The translations under genes and the position numbers were made by a program. The notes under the pieces are model-generated. The model was not told the DNA's origin. It saw nothing but the letters and a program-made list of their open reading frames with translations, and did not search any database. DNA of 63,452 nucleotides, filler included, from Stramenopiles sp. TOSAG23-3 (taxonomy: Eukaryota): assembly GCA_900128585.1 (NCBI GenBank). It is 4 parts of 4 records of this genome, joined end to end, with 100 filler letters (N's around TTAATTAATTAA, not from the genome) between each part and the next. Parts side by side here need not be neighbours in the genome. Positions count along the whole stretch, not along the records: positions 1 to 29,528 come from LT642237.1; 3 more parts are not named here. The stretch is one strand, 5' to 3'. Positions 1 through 51,607 of this stretch are shown here, piece by piece. Every line of letters starts with the position of its first letter. Position 1 is the first letter of the stretch.

Positions 1-217
1 TATTATTATAATCATCAACTCAAAAGCAGCGCATTCGTTCTCTTTATGCAAAATAAAAGACACGTCAATTTCATTGCGACACTAGTTTTAACCAGAAACC
101 TTCATTCTTATTGAGGCAAATACGGACAACAGATTTTTATTGATAGTGGCGAAAGGTACCTCTAGCAACCCACCTTTCGGAAAACACAGCTTCAGTGGGC
201 ATATACGATTGTTCACT

Positions 218-3200
218 ATGAGCAACTGCACCCACCCACCTGCTCCGTGCGAACCAGTTTGTCCGCTATACTCCACGTTTAGAAGCATAGGCAAAATTTT
301 GAATGGTACAAACAATTGTCCAGAGTTTCAATATTTCAATGATCTCGCTGAGGTAAATGCGTGGAGTGGCGAGAAAGTATGCTGCTGTACTCTTTGGTGC
401 AATAGTGCAAAAGCCATAGACTTTTCAGCCTGGGGAGTAGTCTTTGTTCTTCTAGGTGCGACCGTTGTCTTGTCCATAGTATCGGTAAAAATTTTTAGAA
501 AAGTGAAGCATAGGCTGGAGAATATCCCATTTCTGTTGGGCCAGTACGTATACACTCCTCCCCTCATCGCCAAACATTGCTGCCCGTACCACTTGAAGGC
601 AGGGACGAAGTGTTCTCACCCGTGGTTTTTTACTCTCGAGGCACTGTATCACCACTGCAACGTTGAGCACAACGTCGTGGACCGAGCTGAAATAAACAAA
701 GAGCGCTCTAAACATTTGACGGCTCCAAAAATTATGCGGGGTCCCGAAGAAGAGATGTTCCAGTACAGTGGCTTGATCGTCTCGTTAGTTGTCTACGCGA
801 TTCTGATTTCGCCGTTTGTGTTGGTTTTTATTTTGTTTTTCGTTGTGAAGGGGAAACTTGCGGGGGCCTATTGCCTTAGTGTTGATGGCCGAGGAGACGT
901 GGACGAATGGGTCGTGTCAATGACGATTTTTGCGGCCCTTTTCGGGTCGCTGATGGCCCTCTTTGCCTTTGAGCGCTGGCAAACTCGAAACTGGTTGTTG
1001 GACAACACCGTATCGGGGCTGTTTGTTGGGTCGTTTGTTTGTTTTTTTTCGCCGCTAGTTGTTTACGTTGTCGTGTACGACCAGGTGAAATACAAAAGCG
1101 ATTACACATACGTAGCCGCAGTGTTTCTCACGTTGAATATGCTGCCAGCAATCATCGTCAATTTTTCCAGCGTAGGGACAGATCTCCCTCTTGATATTTC
1201 GTCTTTTATCAAACGGTATAAGAACAAAAGGTCTGGTGAGAATAGCCAATCCGTAGCAATTGTGTGTGGTGCCGCCCATGGGAAGGTCAATGGAGTCTAC
1301 GTGCCGACCCCCTGCGCGACCACCGAGTTCGAAGTCCCGCTTGGGCTTGTTATCCCGCCGCCCCACATAAAAACTTCACTTGCATCCATGAGTGACAGCA
1401 ACTTGAAGGACATGCCCGTATCAATATTGCACGCTGATGGAGAAAAGCGCGTTGAGGGGTATATTTTAAAAGTGAACCGGGAGGAAAATGCTGAAGTCAC
1501 GTTCGATATTAAGTTAACTCTTGATTTCGGGGAGTCGGCGAGAGGGAAACATTTTGTTTCTTCCGACCCCGAATTGTTTCCTACTTTTGCGAAGGTAGAC
1601 TGGAAGCACCCAGAAAAATTTACCAACACAATATCTCGCCATTCGTTTCCTGCTGGTCCAGGCCAACCTTCTATTCCGCACTGGTATATATGCGAAGGGA
1701 CTTCGGAAGATCGATACCACTCCACCTCGGCGAGGTACATCGCACGGGCAGATCCTGTCGACAGCGGTTGGCCACCGTCATCGGGTTGGCATCTTGTGGA
1801 CAATGGTGCCATCCCGAACCACGAAACATCAGTCCCGTCTATAATAATGCAAGACGTCACCATCTTCGAAGCAGAGCACAATGCTCAGGTAGAAGCTGAC
1901 AAAACCCAGCGAAAGTTTAGAACTGCGAAAGTGCTGTTGTACATTTTTTCCTTCGCTATGTTGCTTGTCTTTGCATTTTACACGTTTAACTCTATTTGCA
2001 TTGCCAGCTCCAGCAAATCCGCTCAGTTTGTTGGCTTCTTTCATTTTTTCACTGTCATCATCATCGAAATTGCTGTAGCATGGCATTACTTTGCTGGTCT
2101 TGACACAGACTCCTTAACCATAACGTATTTGCATATCGTTGCAAGGATAGCAATGATTTGGGGTGGGTCAAAGTATTACTACCTTGCTGGGTGTTTTATA
2201 TACTTTGTTTTTGCAATGCTACTCGTTTACCACATAGTAAACAGACGCTGGCCAATTTTGACTTCTCGTCAAATTATACGACGCGACCTGTCTAGTGTGC
2301 TGCCGGCCTGGTTGTACAGTGGTGGGAGTGGCAGCTCGGACGATGCGCCATCAGGCTCCGCTATAGACGCAAAGGTTTTGGATGACTTGCTTTTGGCACC
2401 TCTGCTAAAAGTCGCGGATGCGCTGGATAGCATTATCGAGAGATTGACGTTTTTTTTGCCCTGGCGAATCAGCACCAAGCAATTTTTGCAAGCCACGATT
2501 CAGAACCCTGTATGGGTGTTAGTGTACTTAAGTTCGTTGTTCTTTTGTGGAAGCCTCGTTTTCGAGTCTCATTTTCCATCATTACCAATGGTCGAAGTCT
2601 TTGGCGTAGAGAGAACACAAAGCGTCATTGGTAGATATTCGATTTGCTCTGTGCTGCTCATGTATTTTGGCTACGATGCGTTGCGGTCATACAAATATTA
2701 TGGACACCGAATAGACCGTTTCCCTTTCAAAGGCGCCACCATTCGTGCCTGCGTGTTTACACTATCAATGTGGATCTCTGGCTTGGTGTACTACGCCTTG
2801 TCCCCGAGGCGTGAGTTTGACGAGTTAGTATTGATTTTGGCAGTGTTTTCCCCATTGTTGGCTATGGTCGGGATTTGGACCATTCGAAACTGGGCCGCAA
2901 ATGATTACGTGTTCTTAATTGACCTGGATATAAGTGGCCTGCGGCCCCCCAACTTTAACGATCGCCTGCGAAAGTTAGGAAGGAAGTCTTTGAATTTGCT
3001 TGATGCAAAAGGTTTTTGGAAGCAACTGAAATTCTTTGTTTTAGATATCATTCAGAAAATTCGAAAAAGTTTTTTCACTATGATTGGCATGGGTCTTTAC
3101 ATTTTCTTGTCGATATGTGTCTCGGTAGTTATGGGACATTATATGCCAGAGGTGCCCAATGTTTTCTTCCGCGTATTACTCGCTCTGTTTCAGGTACTGA

Positions 3201-6200
3201 CATGCATGTACCTGGCTGTAGTGAAATGGTTCAGTACCTTTCGGCTTCCGATAGTGGTGTTATGTGCCGGCGGGGCTTGGGTTTCATTTCTCTCTGCGGA
3301 ACTATGGACATCCGGCATAGCAAAGGAGTGGGAAATTGTGTCGGTAGTATTTGGGATACCGCTGATTCAGCTAGTAATCATGTCATTGTATCAGCTTTAT
3401 TTGGATGAGTTTAAAATTGTGTGGCAGCTGCCACCGACTTTATTTGCATCATGCATGAAAAGAGATAAAAAAAATTGGTCAAATATTGGTGCGTGTTTAA
3501 CTTTATGTGAGCTTAGTATACTTGTGTTCTTGATTGTTATGCCACAGGTCTTCCACGACCTGGGAGCTTTGAAGGTTCCAGGTGTCGATATACATGTGAT
3601 GACTGTTTTGTGGGCGACTTATTTTTGCCAATTGATTTTTTTTTCGATAATTTATGTGTGGGTGGACAATCATTTTGTCTTGCCACCTGTACTCAAGCGG
3701 GTCATTCTATCACTGGTAGCAGCTGCTATGATCCTGTTGGCCATAGTTAACCACATTTCGAGTAAGTTTACTTTGAATCAATTAATCGACGTGTATATTC
3801 CGGTGTTGATTGTTGGATGTTACGCCACCTATAAACAAGCAGCAGCTTCCGCGACCATTTTTTACTCGGATAATATTTTCCCTGTATTTTCAATAGATCC
3901 ACGGACACACAACTTGATGGACCGGAGTACGGAAATCAAATATGCGTTTTACATACCAATTTTTGCATCCGTTTGGGGATTGTATCGTGCAATAGCAGGC
4001 GATAGTCTCAATGGCGAAGGGAGACAACGGTCCGGGTTTTATATTGTGTGTGTCATTACAGTGTTTACCGTCGCAGTAACAGGCTCTTTGAAACGCACGA
4101 CGAAAAGGAAATTTTGGGCGGCGTGGTCAAGGCTTAAACACTATTCCGATATAATCGATCATTTGCGACTGGAAACATTAAAAACGGAAACGTCCAGTAG
4201 CATGAACTCATCAAAGGAGAATGGCGACAAAATGAGAGGAGACCGGGAGTACAACTTAGCCATGAAAAATGTAGTAGCACTTTCCAAGAAATTTCCTGCA
4301 AAAAGCAAGAAAAAGTTTCATACCTTCAGGGATTGCGTCAAGGCAGCCGGTGCAGTCCCTGCGTCGATGCCAAATCTGTTTTCATTCATTGATAAAACTC
4401 TAAAGGAAACTATTGATGAGTCTGCAAATACCCTCGGAGACACATTTCATAATATTGTTCCTGATGTCATTGAGGATTCTGCTAAGGGCATATATTCCAA
4501 AACGATCGCAGTAGGCATTTCCGATGTTGCAGACCTGGCCCAGCGGGGTGTTGAACAGAGCAAGCAGTTGGCTCAGGAAGCAATACTTTCATCCACGCGC
4601 AATTTAGGAGATACTATTGACGATGCAAACATATTTAAAGACCAATTCAAGGACATAAAATTTTTGGTTGCTGGTGATGCAGATGACGAAGAAGATCTTC
4701 CAGAATTACTAGTCAGCGGCTGTGGCTTGAAGAGCGCGGAGGGGTTGTACTGTTATGTAAAAGGGCATTCAACACCATCTCTTCGGTATTCTCGAATCGG
4801 TGTTGGTGCAGAATTTGAAATCCACTTTCGGGTGTACTCTCAAGTAAATTATTGGACAATAGAATACGACAATACCCCACTCTATGCTTGCAGGGCAGAT
4901 TACGACGTTAAGGACGACAATAGCTCAACAAATGAGAGCCCTGTGTTCTCTCTGAACCCGCCAATAACAGGGTGGACACTAGTATGTACACCCGAGAGCA
5001 AGCTGAAGTCGGTTTCGCCTGCTCCGGTTGTCACTAGTACCGAGCTTGAAGATTGGGGCATGGTATTGCGAGCTTCGAACGGGATTTTACAATGGCAATT
5101 AGAGATGGGTAGAATTCTAGAGGAAGAAAGGAGAATTGAAGCTCGATTCAGGCACTTCGTTATAGAATGTGCTTCCCAGCAGGAACAAGCCGAAGAAAAT
5201 CTATTGTGGGGTTTTGTTCGTGGCTGTATGCCAAAGCTGGTCGAACAACGACGTGGAGCCCAAGTAATTAATTTAGAGACGATGAGCGCTGACGAGCTGC
5301 GGCAATGGGCAAAACGTAAAAAGAAGAAATTGAGGGAGCTTGGTCGATCATACGGCAACAGAATGAAGGCATCATACGAGGAATCGAGAAGAGAAAAAAT
5401 GAAAGCACACACAACCAACAAGGAAAGAAAAGGCCACATGAAAGCAGAGAACCACGTCATTAATTTTAGTTTGACCGACGAAATTTTGGTTGTCTCAAAG
5501 CTGTGCGACGAAATGTTGCGCTTTTGTAAACGATTCAACCGGTCGCAAAATGTAGGCAAAATGATTCAAGACTTTGAAGCTCAGATGAAGAAACTGCGCA
5601 GCAGTTCGAAGAGTAACCGCAGCGCACGAAAACATTCTGAGCTGTACCAGCGGTACTCATCGATCATCGAGAGCTTACGTGGCATTGCTGCAGATTCCTC
5701 AACCGCAGGAGATGCCAAGAATGCATTTGAAAAGCATTATGAAACTGTTTTTGAAAGACTCGCTCTGGAATATTCGGCTTCTTGCCCCGGTAAAGTACTT
5801 GGGAATCCAATTTGGAAAGAATCCCGACATTCTTCCTTGTCTTGGGGAAAGCCCCCAAAATTATTCTACCATTGGCTCGATGAAGGGTTTTTAATTGATA
5901 AAAAACAAGACGATGCCGTACGAACAAGATGGGACATGTTGAAGACTGAAGGTTTCGCCTTAGGTGACTTGGAATCTGACATAATTGCAATGGGAAATTA
6001 TCGCTACTTTAAAACATTGCCAGGAAAGAGCAAGCCCAAAGATCGTTTTTTGAGAGCGAAAGCTTTGGTACAATTTAAAAAAGATTTTCTCTCGCGGTGG
6101 TACAATGATGATAAATTTGTAAAGATAGCGAAGGAGAGTGTTCCAGAGGAATGGGGACTCTCTCTCCACGAACTTCATGCCCTGCTCACGGATGAGCATG

Positions 6201-7768
6201 GGGATGCGGTAGCTTCGCTTGAATATTTCGATCCCCACTGTACGATTGATAGTTCGGATAAATCTCTTTACGAAGCACAGCTTGAATTTTTTAAGCTGTC
6301 TCTGGAGAAAGGAGTTATTCGCTGGGAGTCTAGCAAAGACTCGCTTAAAAAATTCACTGAGATGGACGGTTCTGAAACTGGCAATTGGCCGCTTTTTTGC
6401 CCAGAAAAAGATGGTTCGCAAGCTGCAGACCCGGCAGATATTAACCAAGGCGATGCGAACGATTGTTGGCTCTTGAGTGCAATGATGATTGCTGCCGCCA
6501 AAGACCAAACTGGGTCTAATATTATTTCAAACTTATTTGTAAATTACCAAGAAGATGGAGATACCAAGGACGTACAAATTGTGAAGTTTTTCCGTCCTGA
6601 CACTGGGTTATGGGAATATGTTGTCATAGATAATGCTGTACCCGTTAGAAAACCGGCGGCGTCTGGTTCTCAAGCGCTGGCGAAGCCAAAGTATGCTTGC
6701 AGCAGACAACCTGAGACTTGGGTTATGCTCTTGGAAAAAGCTTACGCAAAGTGGATTACGTCTAGGGTCCAAGCTCCAGTAAACAAAAACCCCTACGAAA
6801 ATATAAATTTTGGTCTCATCGATGAGGCCCTAGTATCGTTCACAGGTGGAGTAAAATCGTTAATTCCACTCGATACACCCGAAGGCCAAGCGAACGCTCG
6901 CTCTGGCGCCTTGTGGAACAAACTAGTAGAATTTCAGTCGAAAGGCTACTTACTAGGAGCAAGTACCCCTTCAGGCCATGATGCTTTTTGGGACGAACAC
7001 GGCCTGGTCAAGGGCCACGCGTATGCTATACTAAGCATAATGACAACCTCGCCTCCTAGTGGTGTCAAATCGGGGTCGAAAATTATGTTGATACGGAACC
7101 CTTGGGGAATTAACCCATGGGACTTTGATCCACCAGCGCACCCGAGTAAGGACCAACCCTGGCCTATCAAACCGTTGGATTGGAGCCCGCGTTCGTCCAT
7201 GTGGCAAGGCAAGGGTGCTCAGTATATGAAAAGAAAATTACAAGTATCGTCTAATTCTGGTATCGATCCTGGCGTGTTTTGGATCACCTACGAAGACTTT
7301 GTTCGCTCATTTGCTGCAATCTTTTGCTGTCGAATGTTGGATGGATGGATAACATACTCTAAATTGTCGGAATGGCGGGAAGGGCGCATGGGAGGCGTCA
7401 TATCCGGACCCTCTGGATTTGAAAATCCGCAGTGGCGCCTCAAGGTCTTGAAAAATACCGCAGCCTATTTTACATTGTCACAAACCCTTAGTGCTTCGTA
7501 TTGCTACATGATGCTAGCGGTAGTGCCAGGGGGGAAACAGTTACGACGGCCTGTGGGGCCAGACGTGATAAAATCAAGCACATTTTTCTATTCTGGTGCG
7601 CCTGATGACAGTCGAGAAATTGGTTTTGACGTACCTCTTCTTCCTCCCGGCGATTATACGATAATCGCAAGTACGTTTGAGCCTGGCGAAACTACCGGAT
7701 GCCGTCTGTCAGTTTACTTTAAAGAGCCTGGTAGTGTAAAAGAGGAGGGGTTTGTTGAATTAAATTGA
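218..7768 (+). CDS. Large multi-pass transmembrane calpain (DEK1-like TML-CysPc-C2L architecture)
   Basis: Intronless ORF 140-7768, first ATG at 218. Many hydrophobic helices in the N-terminal ~1320 aa. Calpain catalytic motifs DINQGDANDCWLLSA (Cys, ~6464), GLVKGHAYAIL (His), IRNPWG (Asn), plus WVMLLEKAYAK and FWITYEDF. C-terminal domain III/C2L (FENPQW...GDYTIIASTFEPG). Confidence 0.9.
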   Translation: MSNCTHPPAPCEPVCPLYSTFRSIGKILNGTNNCPEFQYFNDLAEVNAWSGEKVCCCTLWCNSAKAIDFSAWGVVFVLLGATVVLSIVSVKIFRKVKHRLENIPFLLGQYVYTPPLIAKHCCPYHLKAGTKCSHPWFFTLEALYHHCNVEHNVVDRAEINKERSKHLTAPKIMRGPEEEMFQYSGLIVSLVVYAILISPFVLVFILFFVVKGKLAGAYCLSVDGRGDVDEWVVSMTIFAALFGSLMALFAFERWQTRNWLLDNTVSGLFVGSFVCFFSPLVVYVVVYDQVKYKSDYTYVAAVFLTLNMLPAIIVNFSSVGTDLPLDISSFIKRYKNKRSGENSQSVAIVCGAAHGKVNGVYVPTPCATTEFEVPLGLVIPPPHIKTSLASMSDSNLKDMPVSILHADGEKRVEGYILKVNREENAEVTFDIKLTLDFGESARGKHFVSSDPELFPTFAKVDWKHPEKFTNTISRHSFPAGPGQPSIPHWYICEGTSEDRYHSTSARYIARADPVDSGWPPSSGWHLVDNGAIPNHETSVPSIIMQDVTIFEAEHNAQVEADKTQRKFRTAKVLLYIFSFAMLLVFAFYTFNSICIASSSKSAQFVGFFHFFTVIIIEIAVAWHYFAGLDTDSLTITYLHIVARIAMIWGGSKYYYLAGCFIYFVFAMLLVYHIVNRRWPILTSRQIIRRDLSSVLPAWLYSGGSGSSDDAPSGSAIDAKVLDDLLLAPLLKVADALDSIIERLTFFLPWRISTKQFLQATIQNPVWVLVYLSSLFFCGSLVFESHFPSLPMVEVFGVERTQSVIGRYSICSVLLMYFGYDALRSYKYYGHRIDRFPFKGATIRACVFTLSMWISGLVYYALSPRREFDELVLILAVFSPLLAMVGIWTIRNWAANDYVFLIDLDISGLRPPNFNDRLRKLGRKSLNLLDAKGFWKQLKFFVLDIIQKIRKSFFTMIGMGLYIFLSICVSVVMGHYMPEVPNVFFRVLLALFQVLTCMYLAVVKWFSTFRLPIVVLCAGGAWVSFLSAELWTSGIAKEWEIVSVVFGIPLIQLVIMSLYQLYLDEFKIVWQLPPTLFASCMKRDKKNWSNIGACLTLCELSILVFLIVMPQVFHDLGALKVPGVDIHVMTVLWATYFCQLIFFSIIYVWVDNHFVLPPVLKRVILSLVAAAMILLAIVNHISSKFTLNQLIDVYIPVLIVGCYATYKQAAASATIFYSDNIFPVFSIDPRTHNLMDRSTEIKYAFYIPIFASVWGLYRAIAGDSLNGEGRQRSGFYIVCVITVFTVAVTGSLKRTTKRKFWAAWSRLKHYSDIIDHLRLETLKTETSSSMNSSKENGDKMRGDREYNLAMKNVVALSKKFPAKSKKKFHTFRDCVKAAGAVPASMPNLFSFIDKTLKETIDESANTLGDTFHNIVPDVIEDSAKGIYSKTIAVGISDVADLAQRGVEQSKQLAQEAILSSTRNLGDTIDDANIFKDQFKDIKFLVAGDADDEEDLPELLVSGCGLKSAEGLYCYVKGHSTPSLRYSRIGVGAEFEIHFRVYSQVNYWTIEYDNTPLYACRADYDVKDDNSSTNESPVFSLNPPITGWTLVCTPESKLKSVSPAPVVTSTELEDWGMVLRASNGILQWQLEMGRILEEERRIEARFRHFVIECASQQEQAEENLLWGFVRGCMPKLVEQRRGAQVINLETMSADELRQWAKRKKKKLRELGRSYGNRMKASYEESRREKMKAHTTNKERKGHMKAENHVINFSLTDEILVVSKLCDEMLRFCKRFNRSQNVGKMIQDFEAQMKKLRSSSKSNRSARKHSELYQRYSSIIESLRGIAADSSTAGDAKNAFEKHYETVFERLALEYSASCPGKVLGNPIWKESRHSSLSWGKPPKLFYHWLDEGFLIDKKQDDAVRTRWDMLKTEGFALGDLESDIIAMGNYRYFKTLPGKSKPKDRFLRAKALVQFKKDFLSRWYNDDKFVKIAKESVPEEWGLSLHELHALLTDEHGDAVASLEYFDPHCTIDSSDKSLYEAQLEFFKLSLEKGVIRWESSKDSLKKFTEMDGSETGNWPLFCPEKDGSQAADPADINQGDANDCWLLSAMMIAAAKDQTGSNIISNLFVNYQEDGDTKDVQIVKFFRPDTGLWEYVVIDNAVPVRKPAASGSQALAKPKYACSRQPETWVMLLEKAYAKWITSRVQAPVNKNPYENINFGLIDEALVSFTGGVKSLIPLDTPEGQANARSGALWNKLVEFQSKGYLLGASTPSGHDAFWDEHGLVKGHAYAILSIMTTSPPSGVKSGSKIMLIRNPWGINPWDFDPPAHPSKDQPWPIKPLDWSPRSSMWQGKGAQYMKRKLQVSSNSGIDPGVFWITYEDFVRSFAAIFCCRMLDGWITYSKLSEWREGRMGGVISGPSGFENPQWRLKVLKNTAAYFTLSQTLSASYCYMMLAVVPGGKQLRRPVGPDVIKSSTFFYSGAPDDSREIGFDVPLLPPGDYTIIASTFEPGETTGCRLSVYFKEPGSVKEEGFVELN

Positions 7769-7799
7769 GGCAAAAAAAAGAACAGTGAGAAGAGAAAAT

Positions 7800-8157
7800 A
7801 ATTACTAAAATCACAACTGTAGAGATAAGTTCGCAGTACATGAAGGAACGTAAACCTTTAATGGACAAAAGGAGTAAATTCATTAAAAAACAAGAAAATT
7901 GGCTGTTATTAAGTAAATTCATTTTCGCGTTTTATTTTTATGTCTTTTTGAGGAAGATAATTCGCAGTTCATGAAGGAATGCAAACCTAGAATATCTAAA
8001 TCTAGATTTCAGTTCGCAGTACATTTAATTACTTAAAATAACAGTCAATTTTCTTGTTTTTTATGATAACAGCCAATTTTGTTTTTCAGTTCGCAGTACA
8101 TTCAGTTCGCAGTACATTAATTTTAATTACTTAAATAACAGCCAATTTTCTTGTTTT
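7800..8157 (+). mobile_element. Array of short 3'-end fragments of the RLE non-LTR retroelement family, including one inverted mini-copy at 7885-7911
   Basis: Repeated AGTTCGCAGTACAT and TAAATAACAGCCAATTTTCTTGTTTT units matching 40810-40935, 42340-42425 and 42665-42740. Confidence 0.8.
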
Positions 8158-8181
8158 GAATACATCAACCTTGCACATAAT

Positions 8182-9525
8182 TTACTGAAAGGTCAAGCGT
8201 CTGTTTTTCCATAACAGCAGTGCCGACAAGTCGTAGCTAATGACATTCATGTACGTATTCTGCTGAGCATTGCCGCGCGCCATTCCTAAATTTACACGCG
8301 CAGTGTCTACGAGCTTTCGACTGCTCTTCCCACTAGCAACAATGCTACGAGTCGTTTCAAAGTTTTTCTCAAAAAAATGAACAGCTTTATCAAACTCTTT
8401 GCGTTGGTTGTAAATTACACCCAGGTTACAACATGCCTCTGCCTGGGCTGTTAAATTATCCGTTTGTTTTGCAATATCAAGATATTTTTGCAAGTTTTGG
8501 ATCGCCTCATCGGTATTTCCAAGTTCCTGTTGAGCTGCCGCAAGGGCAGAACAAGCTGCGCCTTGACCTTCCAGGTCCTTTACTGCAACGCAAATATCTA
8601 AATAGGATTGCAAAAATTCTGTGGCTTTGTTGGAGTTTTGTGAAAGCACGAGGGCACGCCCAAGTCGGTAGCTTGCAGCACCAATAGTTTGTTGATGGCC
8701 CGTCATTTTTGCAGAGTCTAAGCATTTTTGGTGAAAAGATATTGCTTCGTCAATTTTCTTGTCGCTGCCTTCCAATGAAACGGCCTTCTTCTCATACACT
8801 TTTACAAGTTGAAAAGCTGCCGTTCTGCTTTCTTTGACCAACGCACCTGCCAGCGCCTCGTTGTCACCCGTCTTTGTCAAATCCATTTGTTTCTCATGGA
8901 AATTGATGGCAGTGTCAATATCGTTCAATCGCATATGTGCAAGGCCTAAATTATAATTAGCCTGTATTTCTCCAACCAAATCATTGGTTAACCTGGCAAT
9001 TTCAAGGCACTTTTCGTAGAAATATATGCCGGTTTTGCTGTCTTGAGAACTCTCGAAGTGGCGGGCCAGGGTTTTGTACGAGTCGAAAACTACTTGGGTT
9101 TCGCCCTGCCTTCTTGCAGCTTCCGCCTTTGTCAAATTGTTTTTAATAAGCTGCATGTCATCGGAAGAGACCTGTATCTCCGCATCAGCTAGCTCGGGCC
9201 TATTGGGGTCTGGGTTCGGGTCTGGCCTATGCATAAGATAAAAAAAGTCGACGTAGGATTGCACGAAGCCCTGAGATAAAATGTCTACGCAGTGTTGTTG
9301 CTTTTGGAGGGCGTCCTCGGCGACCTCAGCTTTGCCGCCCGCATCGCTTCCTGGAAAATTAGATGTTGTGTTACCAGAGGGCACAGGATCACTGCTTCCT
9401 CTGGAGCCCCTACCGCCACGGCGTCCATAGGACGACATTTTTCCCCGTTTCGATCGCTGCGGCTGTTTACTACCAGCCACCTTGCTGATAGTTTGGTTCA
9501 TCGACATGCCGTTCGTGTTCGACAT
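8182..9525 (-). CDS. TTC29: Tetratricopeptide repeat protein 29-like (flagellar TPR protein)
   Basis: LSQGFVQSYVDFFYL N-terminal motif, serial TPRs (ACCNLGVIYNQRKEFDKAVHFFEK), C-terminal ARVNLGMARG...LLLWK; these match my recollection of TTC29. Confidence 0.75.
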   Translation of the reverse strand: MSNTNGMSMNQTISKVAGSKQPQRSKRGKMSSYGRRGGRGSRGSSDPVPSGNTTSNFPGSDAGGKAEVAEDALQKQQHCVDILSQGFVQSYVDFFYLMHRPDPNPDPNRPELADAEIQVSSDDMQLIKNNLTKAEAARRQGETQVVFDSYKTLARHFESSQDSKTGIYFYEKCLEIARLTNDLVGEIQANYNLGLAHMRLNDIDTAINFHEKQMDLTKTGDNEALAGALVKESRTAAFQLVKVYEKKAVSLEGSDKKIDEAISFHQKCLDSAKMTGHQQTIGAASYRLGRALVLSQNSNKATEFLQSYLDICVAVKDLEGQGAACSALAAAQQELGNTDEAIQNLQKYLDIAKQTDNLTAQAEACCNLGVIYNQRKEFDKAVHFFEKNFETTRSIVASGKSSRKLVDTARVNLGMARGNAQQNTYMNVISYDLSALLLWKNRRLTFQ

Positions 9526-18744: not shown

Positions 18745-18788
18745 TAGAATCGAGTTAGGGTTAGGGTATGATGAAGCTAAATTTAATT
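18745..18788 (+). repeat. Short fragment of the retroelement 3'-UTR variant containing TTAGGG-like units
   Basis: AGAATCGAGTTAGGGTTAGGGTATGATGAAGCTAAATTTAATT closely matches 42630-42672 (AGAATCAAGTTAGGATTAGGGTACGACGAAGCTAAATTTAATT). Confidence 0.65.
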
Positions 18789-19011
18789 TTGTAAATAAAA
18801 TGTGCGGTGCGGAGTGATGCTTCGTATTCCTGGACGCGTCCACGGTGAGAAGACGTGAAGATCCTGTGATACCAAGCTTGAACGTTACGCCTAAAGTTTT
18901 TCATGTCTCCCCTGGCGGCATGTGAGTGCATAGAAGGAGTACCTGGGGACATAATAATACGCACGGGCTTTGGTTTCTTTACATGTATCATACATTTGCT
19001 GCAAAAGTAAA

Positions 19012-20196
19012 ATGGCATCTTTAACCAATGTAACCAATGAACTAACCAATGAAAGTCTCACTGCGAAGACGGTGGAGTTGAATACGGCCAAAGCTGAATT
19101 GGAAAAGGCAGAGCTCGCTTTGAGAGAAGCTGTAGAAGCGGTGAAGAAGGCGGAGATGGATATCGAAAGTGCAAAAGAAATTGTCACAGCTAAACAAAAA
19201 GCATTGGATGAGGAAGTTGCCGAGGCTGAGCGAGCACGTAGTGCAAAAGAAGATTTCGTGTCGTCTCTTTGCCCTTATGGGACCCCGCACGGAGCACCTC
19301 TGCCTGGTAGCGGCGAACATGATTTCAGAAATCTTGAAAATGCGATTGCCCATGGAATTAAACTTGGTCATAAACCAGTGATTGACTTTAAATTTATTGA
19401 AATAATTGAAGACAAAGTTTGGTTCTACCGAGAAGGCGAACAAATGTATCCTAACGGGGACATGTTTCAAATAGTGACCATTGCAACGGAGCGTATGCGC
19501 ATGGCACAAGAAGATTACTTACGAGTCCCTGCATCTGGAGAAAAACATGGCATTTCCTTGGCTGGTAGCGGTGTACATGCTGTTAACAATATTGAAGAAG
19601 CGGTCGCTCACGGGTTAAAACTTGGCTACACACCAGAGACGACTTACGAATACGTAGATATTGTCGATGGAATGGCATGGTTTTACGCAAAAGGGAATGA
19701 TAATGGCTGCGGAGGGAAAAACTTATGCCGAGTCGTGAAGAAGGCTTTTATTTGGAAACAAAAATCTGGTTCAGATTGTGGTAAGCAATTACCGGGTTGC
19801 AGTGGTGAAAACTCGTTTAATAATGTGAAAGATGCCATTGTGCATGCAACAAAATGTGGATATATACCTGGGGTGGACCTATGTAAGGTTCAACTTGTTT
19901 CCGGAAAATGGTATTTCTATGGTCCTGGCAGTGCCTCGGGTAAAGGAGGTGATAATGTTTACCAGGTCTTTCGAACAGATTTCAAAGTAGCTCATACACC
20001 TGGCGAAATACTAGGAAAAATTTTCCGAGTTGGCGATGGATATGAAAGTACCGCAGCTGCTGTTGCCGATTCGATGAAATTGGGCAACAAACCAGGGGTT
20101 GACTATAAATATGTTCAAATGGTCGATCGCAAAGCTTACTTTTACTTGCCTGGTACTGAGTCTGGCAGGGGGGGGGCAAAGTGTGTACCGTATTGA
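19012..20196 (+). CDS. Hypothetical protein: N-terminal coiled coil plus four ~65-80 aa repeats
   Basis: Long ORF with ATG at 19012; AEK-rich heptads, then four repeats of consensus G-x-x-L...A(I/V)AH(G)xKLGxxPxxD(Y/F)xx(V/I)x(I/L)VxGKx(W/Y)FYxxG. Confidence 0.75.
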   Translation: MASLTNVTNELTNESLTAKTVELNTAKAELEKAELALREAVEAVKKAEMDIESAKEIVTAKQKALDEEVAEAERARSAKEDFVSSLCPYGTPHGAPLPGSGEHDFRNLENAIAHGIKLGHKPVIDFKFIEIIEDKVWFYREGEQMYPNGDMFQIVTIATERMRMAQEDYLRVPASGEKHGISLAGSGVHAVNNIEEAVAHGLKLGYTPETTYEYVDIVDGMAWFYAKGNDNGCGGKNLCRVVKKAFIWKQKSGSDCGKQLPGCSGENSFNNVKDAIVHATKCGYIPGVDLCKVQLVSGKWYFYGPGSASGKGGDNVYQVFRTDFKVAHTPGEILGKIFRVGDGYESTAAAVADSMKLGNKPGVDYKYVQMVDRKAYFYLPGTESGRGGAKCVPY

Positions 20197-20503
20197 TGAA
20201 ATCACAGATAAAAGTGATATTGACCCTGGTTGCACTGTTTCGTAATTTCGCCCCCCGTGCTCGTCTCTCGGTGACCACCCTCGTTTTCGTTTTTCATACG
20301 TATTTTATGAAATGTAGCTTTAAGTTTTAAAATTACGGTGTATGATATTAAAGAAAGAGAGGATTGTTGAGGATTTGTTAAGAATTGCGGAATAGGAGAG
20401 GTCCATAAATTAAGTGCTCGTATACAACCTTTGTGCACGTATATCTCTTCTTACGAGTACTAAGAGGGTCTTGAAATATTTTTGTTAGCACTTCTTACAA
20501 AAA

Positions 20504-24767: not shown

Positions 24768-25263
24768 GCTATAAACTAATCGATAGCTTGTTGGTTAAAA
24801 TAATAAGTTTTTTTGTCATTTTACCTATTATTCAATGCTATTTTTTGTAACACTAACTCCATGTTAGTTAGTTAGTTTACATAAAAATAGGTACGAAAAA
24901 ACCTTTCTTCAGCACCTTCTTTTTTTTTCATTTCTTTTTTCTTTCAGCACATCTCATTTTTTTGTTTCTTCTTTCTTTGCTATTTCTATATGTAAAGATA
25001 AAATGTAGGATCACGCACCCCTTCCCTCCTCCTCGCTTAATAATTATTATTATTATCCAAAAAAAAAAACAACACACATCCATCATCATCATCAAAGAAG
25101 ATGTAACAAGAAAAAACTGTACACACTCTTCAAGTCACATGGACGTCTACGGTAAAGCATTGGTTTTTTAAACAAACTTTTCAAAAGATTAAAGGACAAT
25201 ATGAAGCAAAATCGCAACGACAACAAAAATATAAAATCACAACAAATCAAAAGAACGAAAAGA

Positions 25264-29149: not shown

Positions 29150-29528
29150 TTTTTACGTGCTACTAATTTTTTAGAGTAACTTGGTCCGTGATTTGCTCGA
29201 CATATGTCATTCTTCTGTAAGGCTTTATATAGCCTGATTTTTGTATCAAAAAAGTTTTACCACGAAGGTGGCAGTCCACACTCACTTCGCAGAATTCCTC
29301 GTATCGCGGTCGTCGGAAGAAGAGGTATAATACCAAGGAAGGAGGAGGGGAGAAAACAAACAAAATGATGAACGAAAAAAACATCTTCTTCGAAGAAGTG
29401 AAGCCCGGTAGTATGTTGTGTAGCTGTATATTTTATTTTTATCTTTAACATAAACACAGCATAAGAAAACACAGAGACCGTCGATTTGCAATTGACGAGT
29501 ATCTGTGGCGCGGAATTGAAAAAGTACC

Positions 29529-29628
29529 NNNNNNNNNNNNNNNNNNNNNNNNNNNNNNNNNNNNNNNNNNNNTTAATTAATTAANNNNNNNNNNNNNNNN
29601 NNNNNNNNNNNNNNNNNNNNNNNNNNNN
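29529..29628. other. Artificial contig-joining spacer
   Basis: 44 N + TTAATTAATTAA (stops in all six frames) + 44 N; identical to the two other spacers. Confidence 0.95.
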
Positions 29629-30280
29629 ATGCGAAGAGATGAAAATGGGGTATGATGCGAGAGGCACTGAAATATTGAAAACGAGAAAGAAAATGGTTTT
29701 GTTGGAAGTGGAATGTATGAAAAAAATTACCCAAAGCATTTCAATGCGTTTTAACTATATGTGTCGTCGAAAACCCTGCTTCCTTGCAGATTTTTACAAC
29801 AAACAGTTTTTCCATAGGAGATCTATTACAAGTTTTCAAAAACCACATGGTGGGGTTAAATTGCGCCAGTGTTCTCAAAAGGAAATAACTTTTGTAAGAA
29901 GACAATTAGATCAATACATTATTCGGGCTGCCAAGGTAGAACAAATTATCAAAGCGCGCAAAACTAAGGAAAGAGATCTTACGTGCTGTTCCAAAAAAAC
30001 ATTTCTTGGAAAGATCAATTTAAAGGTGTTATGGCGAAAAATGGTGACACTTCATCTTGCTAGTAACGCAATTTACGGAGTGAACCATTAAATTTACAAA
30101 TTGCCCCGGTGTGTAGATGCTGCCTCCCACGAGACGATGGGGTCGCGGAGGGGAAACTGTCAGAAGCACAGCAATTTGTAGCCTGTTGCGAGGGTGCAAG
30201 AGGCGGAAAGTGTAATAATGATGGCCATCACACATAATTAATTGACAGGGAGACCCCCACCCTTTCTCCACCTGCGTGTT

Positions 30281-30304
30281 AAAAACAAGAAAATTGGCTG
30301 TTAT
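30281..30304 (-). repeat. Terminal motif of the RLE retroelement family
   Basis: AAAAACAAGAAATTGGCTGTTATTT is the reverse complement of the family terminus AAATAACAGCCAATTT(T)CTTGTTTTT. Confidence 0.6.
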
Positions 30305-31082
30305 TTTATAGTAAAATCTTCTTACATAAAAAAACTAATGATATAGTAAAAATAAGACTTATTTTTTTATTCCAACCAACTTAGTGTACTCTCTAGTAAA
30401 ATATAGGAAATATTCAGTAGACGAACACACAGGGTGATTTTTAACTAATAATACAGGGCAGCGAAGTGATTTTTTATTTTTTCACGAAAATATTTTGCTG
30501 CAAGTACAAGTACAAAACATTGAATTTCATCGCAAAAACTAAATAATCTGATTATGATAGATTGAGTGCACATGGTCAAACTCCTCGTACAACTGAAACT
30601 GAAAATGATATATAGGCATAAGCTGTAGTTACTGAACTGAAAATGAGATATAAACTGTAGTGTGGATATTATTTTTAGCTCTACTATAATTTTAGACATG
30701 CCTACCAAAATAACAAACTACACGGAGAACAAAAAATGTTGGTATTATAAGATGAAAGAGTATTTATGATGGGCCAAAAATGGAAGTTGCCATCAAGTAT
30801 ATCGTTGCCTATTTTTGCCTGTTTTATATTGTTGCCTATTTCGGTAATTCGCCCAGTCGCCACTTAGATAAGTTGGCAGTATGGTATTATTGAACTAGCT
30901 GCGGCACAAAACAACAAAAATAATATAAATGTTGTCCTCGCCCGCAACAACAATCGCAACAAAAATAATCAATGGTAGATACTAGAAATGAAATGCTGTA
31001 CCAATCTAAGGAGTGTCTGTGTAAGTACATTAATAGAAAACTACTATTTATATAGGTAATTTATAAAAGTACTTCGGGAGTT

Positions 31083-31897
31083 GTGGAATCTTCTTCAAAT
31101 CTCTTCCGATTTCAACGAGGCACTTGCATTTCCCGAGTCGCACAACGCACTGCGAATGAGGCGGTGTCCACGGTCGAGTTGCGCTCTCAAAACGCGATTC
31201 TCTCCGAGGGACTCCGAGTTGTGAAATCAATGATTGAAACTGGTAAGTTATTTTCGGATGCAAAGCAGGCACAGCTCCAGGTTGTGACGAACCTCAAGCT
31301 GAAGAAAGGCTAGAATGGCAAAGAGAGCGGCTTTGCAGTGTTCAGGGTCTTTTGAGGTTACCAATGGGTGCAAAATACGCACCGTTTATTTTCCAAAAGT
31401 TGGCCCTCCAGGTCATCCGGTACGCCCGTTTGCGATGGAACTACCGCCTGTCGTCGGCATACCTGGACGATAGTTTCTCGTCGTTTGGTTCAGAAGCACG
31501 CGTGCGCACCGCTCCAAACAGAGTCGTTGCCCTGTACTACTGCTTAGTTTTTCTTGTCAATGAGGCAAAGATTCGCCCACACCAACCCAACGACTGATGC
31601 ATCTTGGTTTCATCATCGATTGACTCCGAATGACTCTTGAGTCGTCAGTGCAGACCCAGCAAAAGATCAAAAGACAGGTTTCCGACCTGGTCCGGGGCGA
31701 GCTAAACGTCACGACGCCTCGAGAGCTTGCGAAGCTCCCGGGGCGTCTTATAAATCAGATGCCCGCCATCGGAGCGCTCGCGCGAATCCTAACAAAAGCG
31801 TTTGCACACTATATTTCCGCCACGATCGCAGAGGCCGGTCTAACCCCTGCGGACCGCCACGGATGGGATTTAGGGTGAAGATCCCCATTCCCCGCGG
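31083..31897 (+). pseudogene. Decayed DIRS/Ngaro-type (tyrosine-recombinase retrotransposon) reverse transcriptase fragment
   Basis: GC-richer island. Across frameshifts and stops: RLPMGAKYAPFIFQK, SAYLDD, LVNEAK, LGFIID..MTL, TPRELAKLPGRL, in DIRS-type RT order. Confidence 0.7.
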
Positions 31898-34497
31898 TTG
31901 CTTAAAAGTATGATTAAAATAAACAGATTAATAGATAGCATAAACAGAGCATCAAATACTCTATTATTTTTGTCTATCAATAAATTCTATTTTCATAAAA
32001 TTAGAAGTACATTTTTGTTCGTTGATTACAGAGGACAATATAATTTCGTAGTTAGTAGAACTATTAAGTATAATATATAGGGTGGATTTGCTTGTCTGAA
32101 GAGACCAATATTATTTGAGAGCTAACATTGAATACTATTAAAAGAGAACAGTATTATTGCAAAATTAGGGTACGGGCGGAACAAAATGCAATGCCTTTGT
32201 ATGACAGTGTAAGTATAGTGGTCTTATTTCAATTAGTTAGGGTTAGTACAGCATTAAACAAAGAAACCCAAATTTTTCTGTCTCAAACAAAATGAAGAGT
32301 AATTTAATGTACGAGAATATATATCTAATGTTGTATTTAACACATAGTGTTAAGGAATAATTGGGCATAAAGGTCCACCGAACGAACACCGACACATGAA
32401 AAAGGAAGAACTCCTATTCGGTATTCAAACGAAAACAACGAGGCTATCAAAGCCATCAAAAACGATAGAGACGGTATATAAACCGTATCGTACACAATTG
32501 GGGATGCGTCGATCAAACTCGACATTTACGAAAAAGATGAATACCGGTTGACTAAAATAAAGTCACCGGAAACGCACCACTTTTGGGAACGAAATCAGCC
32601 GAAACTGAGAATAATATTCTTAGTTCAGCATAGGAATAGCAGGGCGAATCTGATCAATTCGAACTAAGATTTAGCGAAAAAGAAATCTCCAAAAGAAGCC
32701 ATTACATGCAAATAGCATAGGCTACCACGGAAAAAGAACAAAAACATTGAGTTCATATCGTGAGAAATATTCATCAAAGTGAAGATGACGATTACTGCAG
32801 TCACCGCATGACGGTAGTAGCAGTAGTAAATGACATGTAAATGAATGAATCATTACATCCGCTCGCGAGGATGCATGTCACAAATTTAAAAAGGAAAGAT
32901 AATAATCAAAGAGAAGAGAAAAAGAAGAAATTAACGTTAAAACGTAGAAAAGATTATAAAGTTATAAATTCAGTTAAGAGACATACAATACAAGTACGCA
33001 GTTTATTATATTTTTTGTCGTTCTGAGTTTGGATTTTTGAACTGGTTGCTCAAGGCTTTAAGGAGTTCTCGACTATAAGTGACAATAGAGATGATTTGTC
33101 GTTCAGAACTAGCAGAAATACTATGTTTTATAAATATATTATACAATAAAATATTAATCCTTCTCTCTTCAGTAGTAGTCGTCTATCATATTTTATTGTG
33201 ATTCCAAGTTCTTCTACTTAACTGTACAAATAATTATTTATTGAAAAAATAATAATCATCAGATCACGACACCCATCATACATATTTTCTGACTTTGTTC
33301 TATATGTTAAGGAATTCTAGTACTGACTTGGTATATTTACTTACAGAAGTTCTTGAATGTGTGTGATGAAGTTAATTCCATGTATGTACTAATTGCTAGG
33401 GAATATAATATACTCTAATTAATACATAAGTATAAACAAGGTAAAATATTAAATAACCAATATTCCTGTATTCAATGCTATAAAACCCATTATCGCAAGT
33501 GGGCACTGCGCGCAAGGAGAGATAATTTGATACTCCTTCTCAGATCACTTTTTTAGTAGGTACATAGCAATCATGCAGGGTACAAAAATTATTACGCTAC
33601 TGTCATTACACATACATATGAATAGCATTACAACTCAGCTATTTTCGATGTACTACATTATATTGAGCACATATTTTATCGTCCAATCGAGATGAAATGA
33701 CACTTAGTGTATGACGCCTGTTATTCCTATGCTACGTTTGACTTTGTAGGTCGTTTTCTGATATTTTACAAAGTCATTTCGGATGTATACTTAACAAACA
33801 CAAGTACGTATTAATGTTGTGTATATGCTATTTATTTCCCCTATTGTGTTCTTATACACGTTACATATAACCTCAAAACCGCTGTGTGTGCCTGTATTAA
33901 ATTGACGTTTTTAGCATGTAAATACAATTATCATACACTTTTTTTTCGTTTAACAGAGGAATAGGGTTATGTAGTCACTACGTGTCTGCCGTAGCATTTT
34001 TTACTCCGACTGACTATTGCGCCGTGGCAAAAAAAAATGTTTGATGGTTGCTATTCCAATGTAAGTAAGTACAAAAATTGTTGATGTTGGAACAAAAATG
34101 TTTAGTGCTATTAGATGTACTGAAAAAATTAGAAAACGGCCTTAAAAAAATACTACAGGTAATAGGATCACGCATGACTATACATCAACACAATATAAAC
34201 TAAAAACTCATCAATGGTAACCTGATACTAAAAATAGCAGGCACACAGGCCGAGTTTGTGAAGTTGTCGTTTACTCTAATAATCATGCATGTGATGATGA
34301 TGATGAAGAAAAAGTGCAGCAACAATAATTGCAATCTTCTTGCTGCAGCACACAATAATTACGCACCATCGATTCAGGCGTGGTTCCTTTTGTTAACAGT
34401 CGGTTACAAAATAACCCATCTCCAATTTCTTGCTTTGCTGCCCAGAACCACCACCACGGGAAAACCAAACCAGATATCGACAAGAACGGGCGCAATT

Positions 34498-37400
34498 ATG
34501 ATAAAAGGGGTGTCACGAACCTCGGCGCCTAATACTGTTTTGGATGTCTTGATTGCTGTACATACTTTCAAAGGTAGTTCAACTGATACTTTGGCGGTCC
34601 GTAGTGGAGAATACGTCGCTTTAGGATTTCAAGAAGAAGACGTTGACGGATGGATTAACGTAACCAATGTTACAGGTGTCTGTGGTTTTGTGCCCATTTC
34701 GTATGTAGAACATACCATGAACTTGCAGTATGATGTCCTGGCCAAAGTTAAGTTTGCTTTTCACGGAGATCCCGGAGAGAGTCAAATAACATTATCGCAG
34801 GATGAGTTGATCTTGGTGTCATCGTCGACAAAAAATTGTGAATGGATAGCAGCGAAAAGGTTCCAAGAGCACAGCTGTGAAGAAGGGTACGCTCCAAGGT
34901 CGTATATTGAAATTGTTGCCGACGAAGATAGTCCTGAAGGTAAACGCTGTTTTGCAAAGAAAATTGGTTTGTTGGGCGATCATGTTTTTGCTGCTGCCCC
35001 CGGTGCTGTTATTGAAGAACGTAGTGGGAAAGGGCACAATTTAACACCACTGCAAGCGAGACACAATGGTTTGAGGCTCCGAAAAAATCGCGCGAGAAGT
35101 GTTAGTGACATGAGAGGTAGTAAGAAACCAATGCATAGAGTAAACGGGGATGAAAGTACTTCTGCGCGAAAACAACAAAGGAAATATGGGCCTGACCTTT
35201 TTGACTCGTGTCACACGACTCCATTACGTCATAACAAAAGAACCCACCCAATGCCAGTACGTACCGCGTATATTTTTGGCGCTGAGAATATTTTCGTAGA
35301 ACGATTTAAAACGGCAAAAGAAGGATTGTCATTGCACGGGTGGTATACCCCGACCGAGAATATGAAAGTAGTAGTTGTAGTTGATCGTGAAAAACAAAAG
35401 GAAATGTTAGGAACGATAAAGTCGGTTAATATTGACGGGACGTATGATGTACAACTAAAGCAGACGATGATGGTTGGCAAAGCAAGTGTCAGTCTTTTGC
35501 AAAATGTTTCACGGCAAGACATTGTACCATCAAAATGGTCCAAGGTGAGCGGGAACACACCCCCTCAGTTTTTAACATGCATGCAAAATGGAGCGACAGG
35601 ATCGCAGCGATGTGTAGGCACGGTAAGAGATATTCCGTTCGTTGCATCCCTGGCAAGTAGTGCCGTTGCAAACGGGACATCACCACCAGAATTCGAGCTT
35701 GAACAAATCTTAAGCACATTTCATTACCTTCGATTCCGGGACTTAGATGTAATTTTTGAGGAAGGGGAAGAGGGTCATTCTATATACATAATTCTAGAAG
35801 GCCAAGTCGGAGTACTCTCAAATGGGCGAGAACTAGTGCGCCTAAAATCCGGAGAGTGGTTTGGGGAAATTGCAGTGTTACAATGGAATCGCAGAACTGC
35901 GACTTGCTTTTCAGTAGGAAATACCACGCTGCTCTGCATTAACAAACACGAATTTAGTGAAATAGCAAATGCTTTCAAGTGGTTGCGCCCTGCAATGTCC
36001 TCACTTGCCGCGCACCGAACTGGAAAACTGTTAAGCAGGGTTACATTTCTTGAGAATTTGTCTGAAGATGAATTGACTCTGCTTGGCGGGGCGTTTGTGT
36101 ATAAAGGGTACCCAGACAATTCTGTTATTTGTCGTGAAGGAGAGGTTGGCAATGAATTCTATATCATTGTCCATGGCACTTGTAGAATTACAATTACAAA
36201 TAGTGACGGCCAGCAAGAGTTTTTAAGGGAGTTAGAAGCTGGTTCATGGTTTGGGGAGGTTGCCTTAATTGAAAATTGTTATCGAACAGCAACCATATCT
36301 GCTTCAAGCCATGTTACTCTCCTCGTTTTAGCCGCAGAAAAGTTTGAGGCTTTCATAAAACGATCCTCGCAAAAATTCGTCGACAGTCTACGCACTAACA
36401 TCACGTCTACAGTTTCTCAGATGGTGACAAATATACCATTTTTTAAAAATGTAAGTAATAAAGAGCAACTCGCATCTTTATTTCACTTACAGCAGTTTGA
36501 GGAAGGCGATGTTGTATTTCGCGAGGGGACGAAGGGTGATGCTTTTTATATTTTACAAGATGGAGCATGCCGAGTTACGATAAACAATGAAGCCGATGTA
36601 GACATGCTGGTTGCACAGTTGCGGACAGGAGATTTCTTTGGTGAAGTGGCTCTTTTGAGTCAAAGCGTAAGAACGGCTACTATTACATGCAGCGAACGCA
36701 CGCGGCTTTTGGTGCTCCCATCCTCCTCGTTCAAGAGTTTCCTCGCCGTCGCCCCCGAGGTTAAACAGCATTTGCAACGGCACATGCAGCGTGTGTTGCA
36801 AGACGATAAAACAGCAGGTGTGGTAAAACATAGCAGGGATGGGCCCCTTGGTATCAAAGCTACGTTTGTAGATATTGAAATGTTAGGAGGACTAAAAGAA
36901 AGATCGTACATTCAGTTTGCTAATTCATTAGAATGGCGAGATGCTCCATTGTTGTATCGATTGCCCCGAGGTTTGAATTCCATGATTGATTCTCTCCCCA
37001 AGCGCATTTTGAAGCCGAACATTACTCGCTTTCTGAGTTCATATCTTGACGAAAGAATGTACTCCAAAATGACGGAAAAATTCAAGAATCAGACGATTAC
37101 CTTGAACATTTTTCTACCGAGACTGAAAGATAATTTTGAATTGCATTCACACGACTTAGAGAAAAACTATCATTTTTCACTTTCCTTGAGTATTCATTGT
37201 ACCATATTAAATGCAATGGAAGAGTTAGCGAGTGCAATGGAAGATACTTTGAGTACTAAAGGAGCAGTAAACCTTGCAGGTTATGGTTTCAAAGTTCTTG
37301 GGAAAAGCAACTATTTGATTGGCAATGGAAAAACACTGGGTATGTATCGTAGTGTACAAGAATGTCAACGATCAGAGAAACCATTACAATTGGTGCTAAT

Positions 37401-40684: not shown

Positions 40685-40935
40685 TGAGACATCGGATGAG
40701 GAAGTTGATTATGGGTCTCCTGATATCGACGCAATTCCACACACTGATTCGGATCATGCATGGAGTACACATAGAAATGATAGTCAAGACTAAGTGACAA
40801 GGGGGTATATTGATTACTAAAATCACAACAGTAGAGATCAGTTCGCAGTACATTAATTTTAATTACTTAAATTAACAGCCAATGTTTTGTTTTTAAATTA
40901 CTTAAATAACAGCCAGTTTTTTGTTTAAAAAAAAA
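40685..40935 (+). mobile_element. 5'-truncated retroelement copy (ORF tail + 3' UTR + two terminal units)
   Basis: GGATGAGGAAGTTGATTATGGGTC...GATAGTCAAGACTAAGTGACAAGG...AGTTCGCAGTACATTAATTTTAATTACTTAAA matches 42190-42425. Confidence 0.8.
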
Positions 40936-42426: not shown

Positions 42427-42745
42427 CCACTCAACCCACAGATAACAACCCCTTGACCAATTTACAAGACAGACAACGAGCACCTAAACAACAAATAAGC
42501 CGCTGCTTNNNNNNNNNNNNNNNNNNNNNNNNNNNNNNNNNNNNNNNNNNNNNNNNNNNNNNNNNNNNNNNNNNNNNNNNNNNNNNNNNNNNNNNNNNNN
42601 NNNNNNNNNNNNNNNNNNNNNNNNNNTACAGAATCAAGTTAGGATTAGGGTACGACGAAGCTAAATTTAATTACTTAAATAACAGCCAATTTTCTTGTTT
42701 TTAAAAAAAATTACTTAAATAACAACCAATTTTCTTGTTTAAAAA
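42427..42745 (+). mobile_element. Further truncated copy or copies spanning an assembly gap (N 42509-42626), ending in two terminal units
   Basis: 42440-42508 repeats 42090-42155; 42665-42745 has TTACTTAAATAACA(G/A)CCAATTTTCTTGTTT twice. Confidence 0.75.
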
Positions 42746-51152: not shown

Positions 51153-51607
51153 ACTAAAACGTTTTTTATGGATACTATTTCCATGCGATGCGAATCATGA
51201 ACTATATTCTATAATCTGCACCACCCTTTTCTCGGCCTAATAATAAAAAAACAAAATATATATTAAAACGATGAATTTTTAAATTTGTTTGTTTATGAGT
51301 AAAATTTATCTTGATTATTAATTTAAAAATATTGATAAGATAAATCATAAAAAGTTAATCTAAAATCACAGAGCATAATAATTTTGTTTGTAAAATATGA
51401 ATACTTTCCGTGCGATGTGATTTGTTCTTATCCGATGTTTGTCAATAAATATTTTTCATGCGATGCAATTTATTTTTATGGGTTTGTTTTGATCAATTTG
51501 GTTTGCAAATAAATATATGATAAATTTACTACAAATTTGCATCACATGGAAGAAAATGTTAAGTTAAACCAAAATATACGTGTTAAATTATAAATACACA
51601 TTTTTAT

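Follow-up and report, generated by a model that had tools for sequence, protein, structure and literature searches.

Two convergent genes in the window, by which we mean the whole stretch of DNA analysed here (63,452 nucleotides), are separated by a gap at 7769-8181 that holds several pieces of a retroelement, and the locus raises the question of what placed them there. A sequence-only reading had claimed that such arrays sit just behind stop codons, with the T-rich end of the element facing the 3' end of the gene. On the left of the gap, a calpain-domain gene (ORF 92-7768, + strand) ends with a stop codon at 7766-7768. An older piece of the element 3' UTR (7784-7872, +) begins 16 nt past this stop in the sense orientation, and self-BLAST matched it at about 80% to the reverse complement of 51675-51772. 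A 27-nt stub of the element 3' end (7885-7911, -, terminus 7887) is flanked by two copies of a 12-bp target-site duplication (7873-7884 and 7912-7923). This stub had been read as an inverted mini-copy about 117 nt from the calpain stop; its orientation and distance were confirmed, but it is nested inside the older sense piece, between the duplications. On the right, a stack of truncated 3' ends (7954-8157, +, termini 8060, 8087 and 8157) points away from the calpain gene and faces the stop codon of a TPR-repeat gene (8182-8184, -). The name TTC29 for this gene is that of the earlier reading, and Pfam matched TPR repeats only. Two RNA contigs pass the calpain stop by 80-90 nt into the sense piece and end where DNA contigs also break, and the whole array was skipped by 0 of the 15 joints listed out of 58 (contigs of 4 of 24 listed runs, region 6800-9200). 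Hence, these contigs revealed no poly(A) site and no empty allele at 6800-9200. The assembly is eukaryotic (28.4 Mb in 7,088 contigs) with long ORFs mostly free of interruption, and most of the public runs containing the window sequence are metagenomes of marine or seawater origin.

The repeated pieces belong to a LINE (non-LTR retrotransposon) that has a restriction-like endonuclease (REL) and a T-rich 3' end, and they are truncated at their 5' side. The exact 25-nt terminus occurs 819 times in the genome, compared to 0 for the reversed control. This 3' terminus is constant while the 5' truncation point varies, leaving inserts of about 15-260 nt between duplications. Target duplications of at least 10 bp were found at 30 of 142 parsable termini (197 in total), compared with 6.2 when the pairings were shuffled; their length is mostly 10-17 bp, with T first, and a few are tandem repeats of tails. 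The window contains a 5'-truncated element ORF (40930-42298, +), which comprises the endonuclease region and a Ser-rich tail, has an internal stop at 41770-41772, and matches P0001 at 77% over 436 aa. In P0001 a Cys/His knuckle is followed by acidic and K..KY motifs. P0001 and the window ORF share their stop, and a short UTR and then the T-rich stretch come after it, so the T-rich end is the 3' end of the element. Judged by eye, a C-terminal CCHC knuckle and then acidic and K..KY nuclease motifs are present in P0001-P0003 and the window ORF, and the REL nuclease region gave no Pfam match and no PDB sequence match. P0005 carries a reverse transcriptase (RT, YADD) and a homologous nuclease region (35-37% over 450-530 aa) in one ORF, and an RT is also found in the homologous P0006; the RT motif readings, YADD included, were made by eye and are presumptive. 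A sister family in this genome (L110) matched RVT_1 with an E value of 8e-7 and 29.4 bits, just under the cut-off of 29.6. The main family's own RT and N-terminus were not recovered from the assembly, and the RVT_1 family search returned 8 matches, none with the element tail, which we take by eye to be Gypsy- and DIRS-like.

Several 3'-UTR subfamilies have a common tail, and a second family (family B) has a different T-rich tail. A MITE/TIR DNA transposon was ruled out, as solo termini carry their own duplications. The outermost termini of 15 multi-copy gaps were arranged -/+ in 8, on the same strand in 6 and +/- in 1. On contig C15 of this assembly (G000), the outward-facing termini 15416 (-) and 15659 (+) are followed by identical 30-nt flanks, one on each strand, so that flanking DNA is duplicated there in inverted form. 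P0004 has a DUF229-type Pfam match (PF02995) and ends in a piece of the element ORF, possibly by read-through into an insertion. We present the element as an undescribed REL LINE family that lacks the fixed polarity claimed for it.

Edit-distance matching with up to 4 edits detected 16 termini in the window. A piece without a tail at 18746-18798 (+) is complete in another assembly that lacks about 18799-20311. Behind the PI3K gene (34204-40587), whose product has three cyclic-nucleotide-binding domains and an SH3 domain, 3' pieces at 40685-40935 (+, termini 40893 and 40927) begin 98 nt past the stop and are sense to the gene. Downstream of the element ORF, 42299-42741 (+) contains its 3' UTR, an N gap and a second 3'-UTR subfamily, with termini 42701 and 42741 facing the stop at 42788. 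A stack of truncated copies (50191-50960, -) faces the stop of an ELWxxDGT gene at 50002, and a truncated copy at 51600-51940 (-, terminus 51610) points away from the stop at 52147. The tail of family B (57830-57862, +) is followed by a fragment of the main family's internal ORF (57899-58168, +, 65% by tblastn of P0001), and the termini 61350 (-), 61452 (+) and 61530 (+), spanning 61350-61530, lie behind a gene with its stop at 61584. The subfamily at 42627-42701 and 18746-18798 carries, roughly 40 nt ahead of its tail, two telomere-like TTAGG(G/A) units; its frequent position beside an N gap or at the end of a contig suggests that it is young and high in copy number. The N gaps at 29529-29628, 59001-59100 and 61227-61326 hold the linker TTAATTAATTAA and are joins made in assembly, which makes any gap context that spans them uncertain.

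The distances on which the sequence-only reading was based were reproduced: termini 8157, 42741 and 61530 (+) and 7887 and 50191 (-) lie 25, 47, 54, about 117 and about 189 nt from the stops at 8182, 42788, 61584, 7768 and 50002, respectively. The four promoter gaps that it named as empty indeed hold no terminus. A fifth start-to-start region that it did not list (29153-34203, with an N gap and RT debris) contains a solo terminus (30282-30314, -), an exception to the pattern; an unsupported ORF of 168 codons ends 190 nt from it. A degenerate RT fragment (RVT_1, E 0.003) lies at 31247-31594 in a 5-kb region without genes. The two convergent gaps named as empty hold no terminus in the window, but one of them (20197-20503) has a terminus in another assembly. 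The T-rich end facing the stop did not stand as a rule, because the five examples were a selection with counter-cases in the same window: 8060, 8087 and 8157 point away from the calpain stop, 40893 and 40927 from PI3K, 51610 from 52147 and 61350 from 61584. The first element piece faces the stop behind the TPR, 42788, 50002 and 61584 stops and is sense-oriented behind the calpain, PI3K and 52147 stops.

Placement was scored in three samples. Sample A consisted of contigs C1-C40 (741,296 bp), picked regardless of content, with genes called by a Markov model trained on long ORFs and without intron handling; after exclusion of 10 gaps that were intron-like or overlapping, all of them free of termini, 267 gaps were kept. 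Sample B covered the exact termini listed for C42-C125 (40 loci), with one contig-edge terminus skipped. Sample M was drawn from other assemblies (79 of at least 133 metagenome stretches) and is not fully independent, with two duplicate pairs and eight loci overlapping DNA of this genome. All copies in these samples are assembled alleles and have already been filtered by selection.

The positional bias behind gene 3' ends is real and very strong. In the 741 kb of sample A, 90 termini were counted, compared with 1 in each of two controls, which extrapolates to about 3,400 genome-wide. Termini were present in 30 of the 97 convergent gaps, 13 of the 90 tandem ones and 1 of the 80 divergent ones (convergent versus divergent, Fisher p=3.5e-8), with 65 termini in 36 kb of convergent, 15 in 67 kb of tandem and 1 in 88 kb of divergent gaps, and 9 outside two-sided gaps. 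The sole divergent terminus is a 4-edit match, at the control rate, and the coding DNA, 72% of the sample, holds at most 1 doubtful terminus of the 90. In sample B, the 35 two-sided loci were 32 convergent, 3 tandem and 0 divergent, and the 5 one-sided loci were all beside a 3' end. In sample M, 36 convergent, 16 tandem and 1 divergent locus made up the 53 two-sided ones, with 22 one-sided loci at a 3' end and 4 without a called gene. The claim that a retroelement with a U-rich 3' end is concentrated just behind gene 3' ends was thus borne out by gap occupancy. Within 150 nt of the stop, density was about 1.9 blocks/kb in convergent gaps and 0.7-1.1 in tandem gaps, and in tandem gaps it was 0-0.12 blocks/kb beyond 200 nt. 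Convergent gaps are about twice as dense as tandem ones, which is what the overlap of two zones would produce, and the convergent occupancy of 0.31 compares with 0.27 expected for two independent ends at the tandem rate. Family B was found in 10 convergent, 1 tandem and 1 divergent gap. One true divergent-gap copy was identified, common to two assemblies; with terminus 30282 in the window, it shows that the bias is not absolute. A segregating indel of about 98 bp lies beside this shared copy, about 170 nt upstream of a start codon.

Base composition did not account for this distribution. Divergent gaps hold 49% of the element-free intergenic bases and 54% of the motif-weighted sites (matrix from 20 flanks). 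The AT content of empty convergent gaps was the lowest (0.633 versus 0.672 and 0.671), and the density of TAAAA plus TTTTA was similar near stops and in promoter gaps. Simple AT preference, which the sequence-only reading had kept as an alternative, was therefore ruled out. The identity of the stop codon had no clear effect as a target, with TAA at 66 of 140 occupied and 88 of 211 empty ends. Targeting of tRNA genes was also ruled out, since none was found in the window or in any of the 60 loci scanned (60/60). The comparison with Dictyostelium TRE elements that had been drawn thus holds as an analogy, but not for the tRNA-gene target. Unrelated repeats of 40-330 bp in four clusters gave 7 divergent and 5 tandem gap records and 0 convergent ones, or 9 divergent and 3 convergent with three ambiguous pairs counted (Fisher p about 4e-6); these control repeats are few and might themselves prefer promoters. 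Other dispersed repeat families (24788-24889, 46353-46452 and 30400-30545 in the window; C16, C22, C4 and C39) are mainly in divergent and tandem gaps, and are possibly promoter-preferring elements. DIRS, Gypsy and RT fragments from 11 loci had no match in the 40 contigs or the window and so supplied no control.

Orientation was close to neutral. Tandem gaps provide the cleanest test, and the facing to away counts there were 8:7, 1:2 and 8:8 in samples A, B and M, or 17:17 in sum, so a fixed orientation largely fails. The raw counts in convergent gaps showed an excess facing the nearer stop (45:20 and 55:17), which is partly geometric; after masking, 84 of 137 termini faced the nearer stop, 52 the farther, and 1 was tied. 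Neither the exact termini (31:22) nor the single-terminus gaps (19:11) leaned significantly toward the nearer stop. Of 140 first termini past a stop, 81 faced it, with a ratio of 36:15 in the 50 element-free nt nearest the stop (p=0.005, in a bin picked post hoc) and 45:44 beyond. Independent masking gave 36:9 within 50 nt and 48:62 beyond, and incomplete masking of element bodies pushes such counts toward facing. No strand asymmetry of A/T or of the target motif was detected after stops. A modest orientation bias near stops is possible; a rule is not. The tandem parity, the 81 of 140 and the absence of motif asymmetry all leave without support the proposal of the earlier reading that the element primes on the sense strand of the gene.

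Several insertions are recent. Ten loci of other assemblies, chosen for holding a terminus, were compared with orthologous DNA of this genome, and in 2 of them (L180 and L197) the focal terminus was missing from G000; ortholog look-ups gave no match for 2 of 4 loci. Five presence/absence insertions were found, and all lie in 3' gaps, which counts in favour of biased integration. The inserts measure 349 nt (with a 12-bp duplication and a filled/empty pair), 207 nt, 38 nt (family B) and 24 nt, the fifth case being L197. At the empty site of L180 the duplication starts with one T, which argues that the T-run is largely element-derived and that pairing can be minimal. The L197 assembly carries a full terminus and lacks about 1.5 kb of the window (18799-20311, including ORF 18958-20196), a difference that may reflect an insertion-linked deletion or a later gain in G000. 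The ORF in this segment has 412 codons and belongs to no clear family, and it represents a gene presence/absence polymorphism at an element end.

The best reading of these results, one to which we give slightly better than even chances, is integration that is biased toward the 3'-end zones of genes but neutral as to strand, with selection sharpening the pattern. A single-ORF LINE with RT and restriction-like endonuclease would insert via target-primed reverse transcription (TPRT), a chemistry that is established for non-LTR elements. The nuclease is predicted to nick AT-rich DNA on either strand just 3' of one to five A's, and the U-rich RNA end would pair with those A's. Reverse transcription would usually halt after about 15-260 nt, and a second nick 10-17 bp off would create the target duplication. 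Insertion would favour, on either strand, a zone formed by the roughly 200 nt that follow every protein-coding stop codon, and two such zones would overlap in convergent gaps. Older copies would offer more target sites and give rise to stacks, with selection trimming the result. The bias probably arises at insertion, with open chromatin, R-loops or tethering to zones of Pol II termination as candidate causes. A stronger version, in which two T-tailed REL LINE families are actively tethered to Pol II termination or 3'-processing sites genome-wide and gene ends serve as a safe harbour, seems to us rather doubtful; we identified no tethering domain or partner for the element.

Selection alone is a serious alternative that we nevertheless consider unlikely. 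It supposes insertion across all AT-rich DNA, with copies in coding DNA and promoters purged in a very large population. The near absence of termini from the 72% of sample A that is coding is as it predicts, as are the bigger stacks in convergent gaps without a nearby promoter (65 termini in 30 gaps, versus 15 in 13), and the scarcity of sense copies within 50 nt of stops (36:15) looks like selection in 3' UTRs. However, it needs a more than 100-fold stronger purge of 20-60-nt stubs from 1-kb divergent gaps, which do carry other repeats and length polymorphisms. The drop in tandem density past 200 nt begins hundreds of bases before the next start, and near-exact termini (32/9/0 in convergent/tandem/divergent gaps) are distributed in the same way as decayed ones (33/6/1). 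Between targeting and selection, we are leaning toward targeting.

It is quite improbable that the arrays seeded themselves, that is, that some few old seeds persisted behind genes and that later copies mainly targeted older ones through tail motifs or RNA/cDNA homology. With a generous mask, 110 of 156 termini have repeat-derived 3' flanks, and older tails enclose or adjoin the stub at 7885 and several of the polymorphic inserts. Yet one count per gap still gives 30/13/1, so the seeds would need an explanation of their own, and solo stubs with duplications also occur in unique DNA. The strand-specific model, in which priming by the U-rich end of the RNA takes place at the poly(A) site on the A-rich sense strand and leaves antisense copies with the T-end facing the stop, is very unlikely and largely refuted already: the facing excess within 50 nt (36 of 51) and in masked convergent gaps (84 of 137) is in its favour, but 17:17 in tandem gaps, 45:44 past 50 nt, the non-significant 19:11 and 31:22, the lack of asymmetry after stops and a masking bias that itself favours facing all speak against it.

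The safe-harbour strategies known from compact genomes rely on tRNA genes, telomeres, rDNA or promoters. If a LINE picks the roughly 200 bases behind protein-coding genes, a new niche is added. True targeting would mean that Pol II gene ends carry a host feature readable by a simple nuclease-RT protein, and tethering to Pol II would make the element a Pol II counterpart of TRE3 and a mirror image of promoter-biased Zorro3-type elements. A LINE that picks gene ends could serve low-damage gene insertion. If selection alone is at work, thousands of polymorphic stubs still map insertion tolerance finely across a wild marine genome. Exact-phrase searches of the open-licence literature, judged by the listed entries and the openings of abstracts, returned no paper on a LINE with such a gene-end niche, a result that does not establish its absence from print.

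EhLINE1 of Entamoeba and its SINE partner EhSINE1 resemble this element in a REL nuclease without a fixed target gene, a T-rich 3' tail, target duplications and an exclusively intergenic location in a gene-dense protist genome (PMC1635306, PMC3118788). Their T-rich tail was proposed to pair with the A-rich bottom strand, so the idea of U-tail priming on an A-rich strand is not new (PMC1635306). Unlike those elements, for which we found no gene-3'-end or convergent-gap bias reported in the available text (the word 'convergent' appears 0 times in that of PMC3118788), the copies here are biased in placement and are mostly stubs of 20-260 nt. Elements of the CRE group (CRE1/2, SLACS, CZAR, MoTeR1, Cnl1 and FoTeR) have a single ORF in which an RT precedes a CCHC-type knuckle and a PD-(D/E)xK-type nuclease, an arrangement that the element here probably has too, and both have repeats near the 3' end (PMC12857005). 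P0006, the RT of a relative, is similar to P0009, which has a CRE-like knuckle (BLAST similarity, E 5e-18). However, CRE elements target telomeres or spliced-leader genes, whereas insertions here are dispersed with unrelated flanks, and the knuckle reads C-X7-C-X8-H-X3-C-X8-PHN instead of the published C-X1-3-C...RHD/N (PMC12857005). Since knuckle and target depart from the published CRE definition, we did not file the element as CRE despite its CRE-like architecture.

Dictyostelium TRE3 and Skipper-2 are alike in an insertion window about 100 bp downstream of a gene class, a compact genome and the safe-harbour logic, but TRE3 is an APE-nuclease element with a poly(A) tail and tRNA-gene targets, whereas the neighbours here are protein-coding (PMC5006619). 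Zorro3 of Candida albicans is also a LINE with many targets in simple AT-rich DNA beside genes, scored by gap type; unlike this element, it belongs to the L1 clade and has a poly(A) tail (PMC1965478). Its 30 new insertions (16 divergent, 13 tandem and 1 convergent) show the opposite bias (PMC1965478; also PMC7175516). Leishmania SIDER1/2 comprise about 2,000 truncated retroposon copies, roughly three quarters of them in 3' UTRs (PMC2689281). Those elements are extinct, domesticated and, in UTRs, strongly sense-oriented, in a polycistronic genome (PMC2689281), whereas the element behind the calpain and TPR genes is active, polymorphic and nearly strand-neutral.
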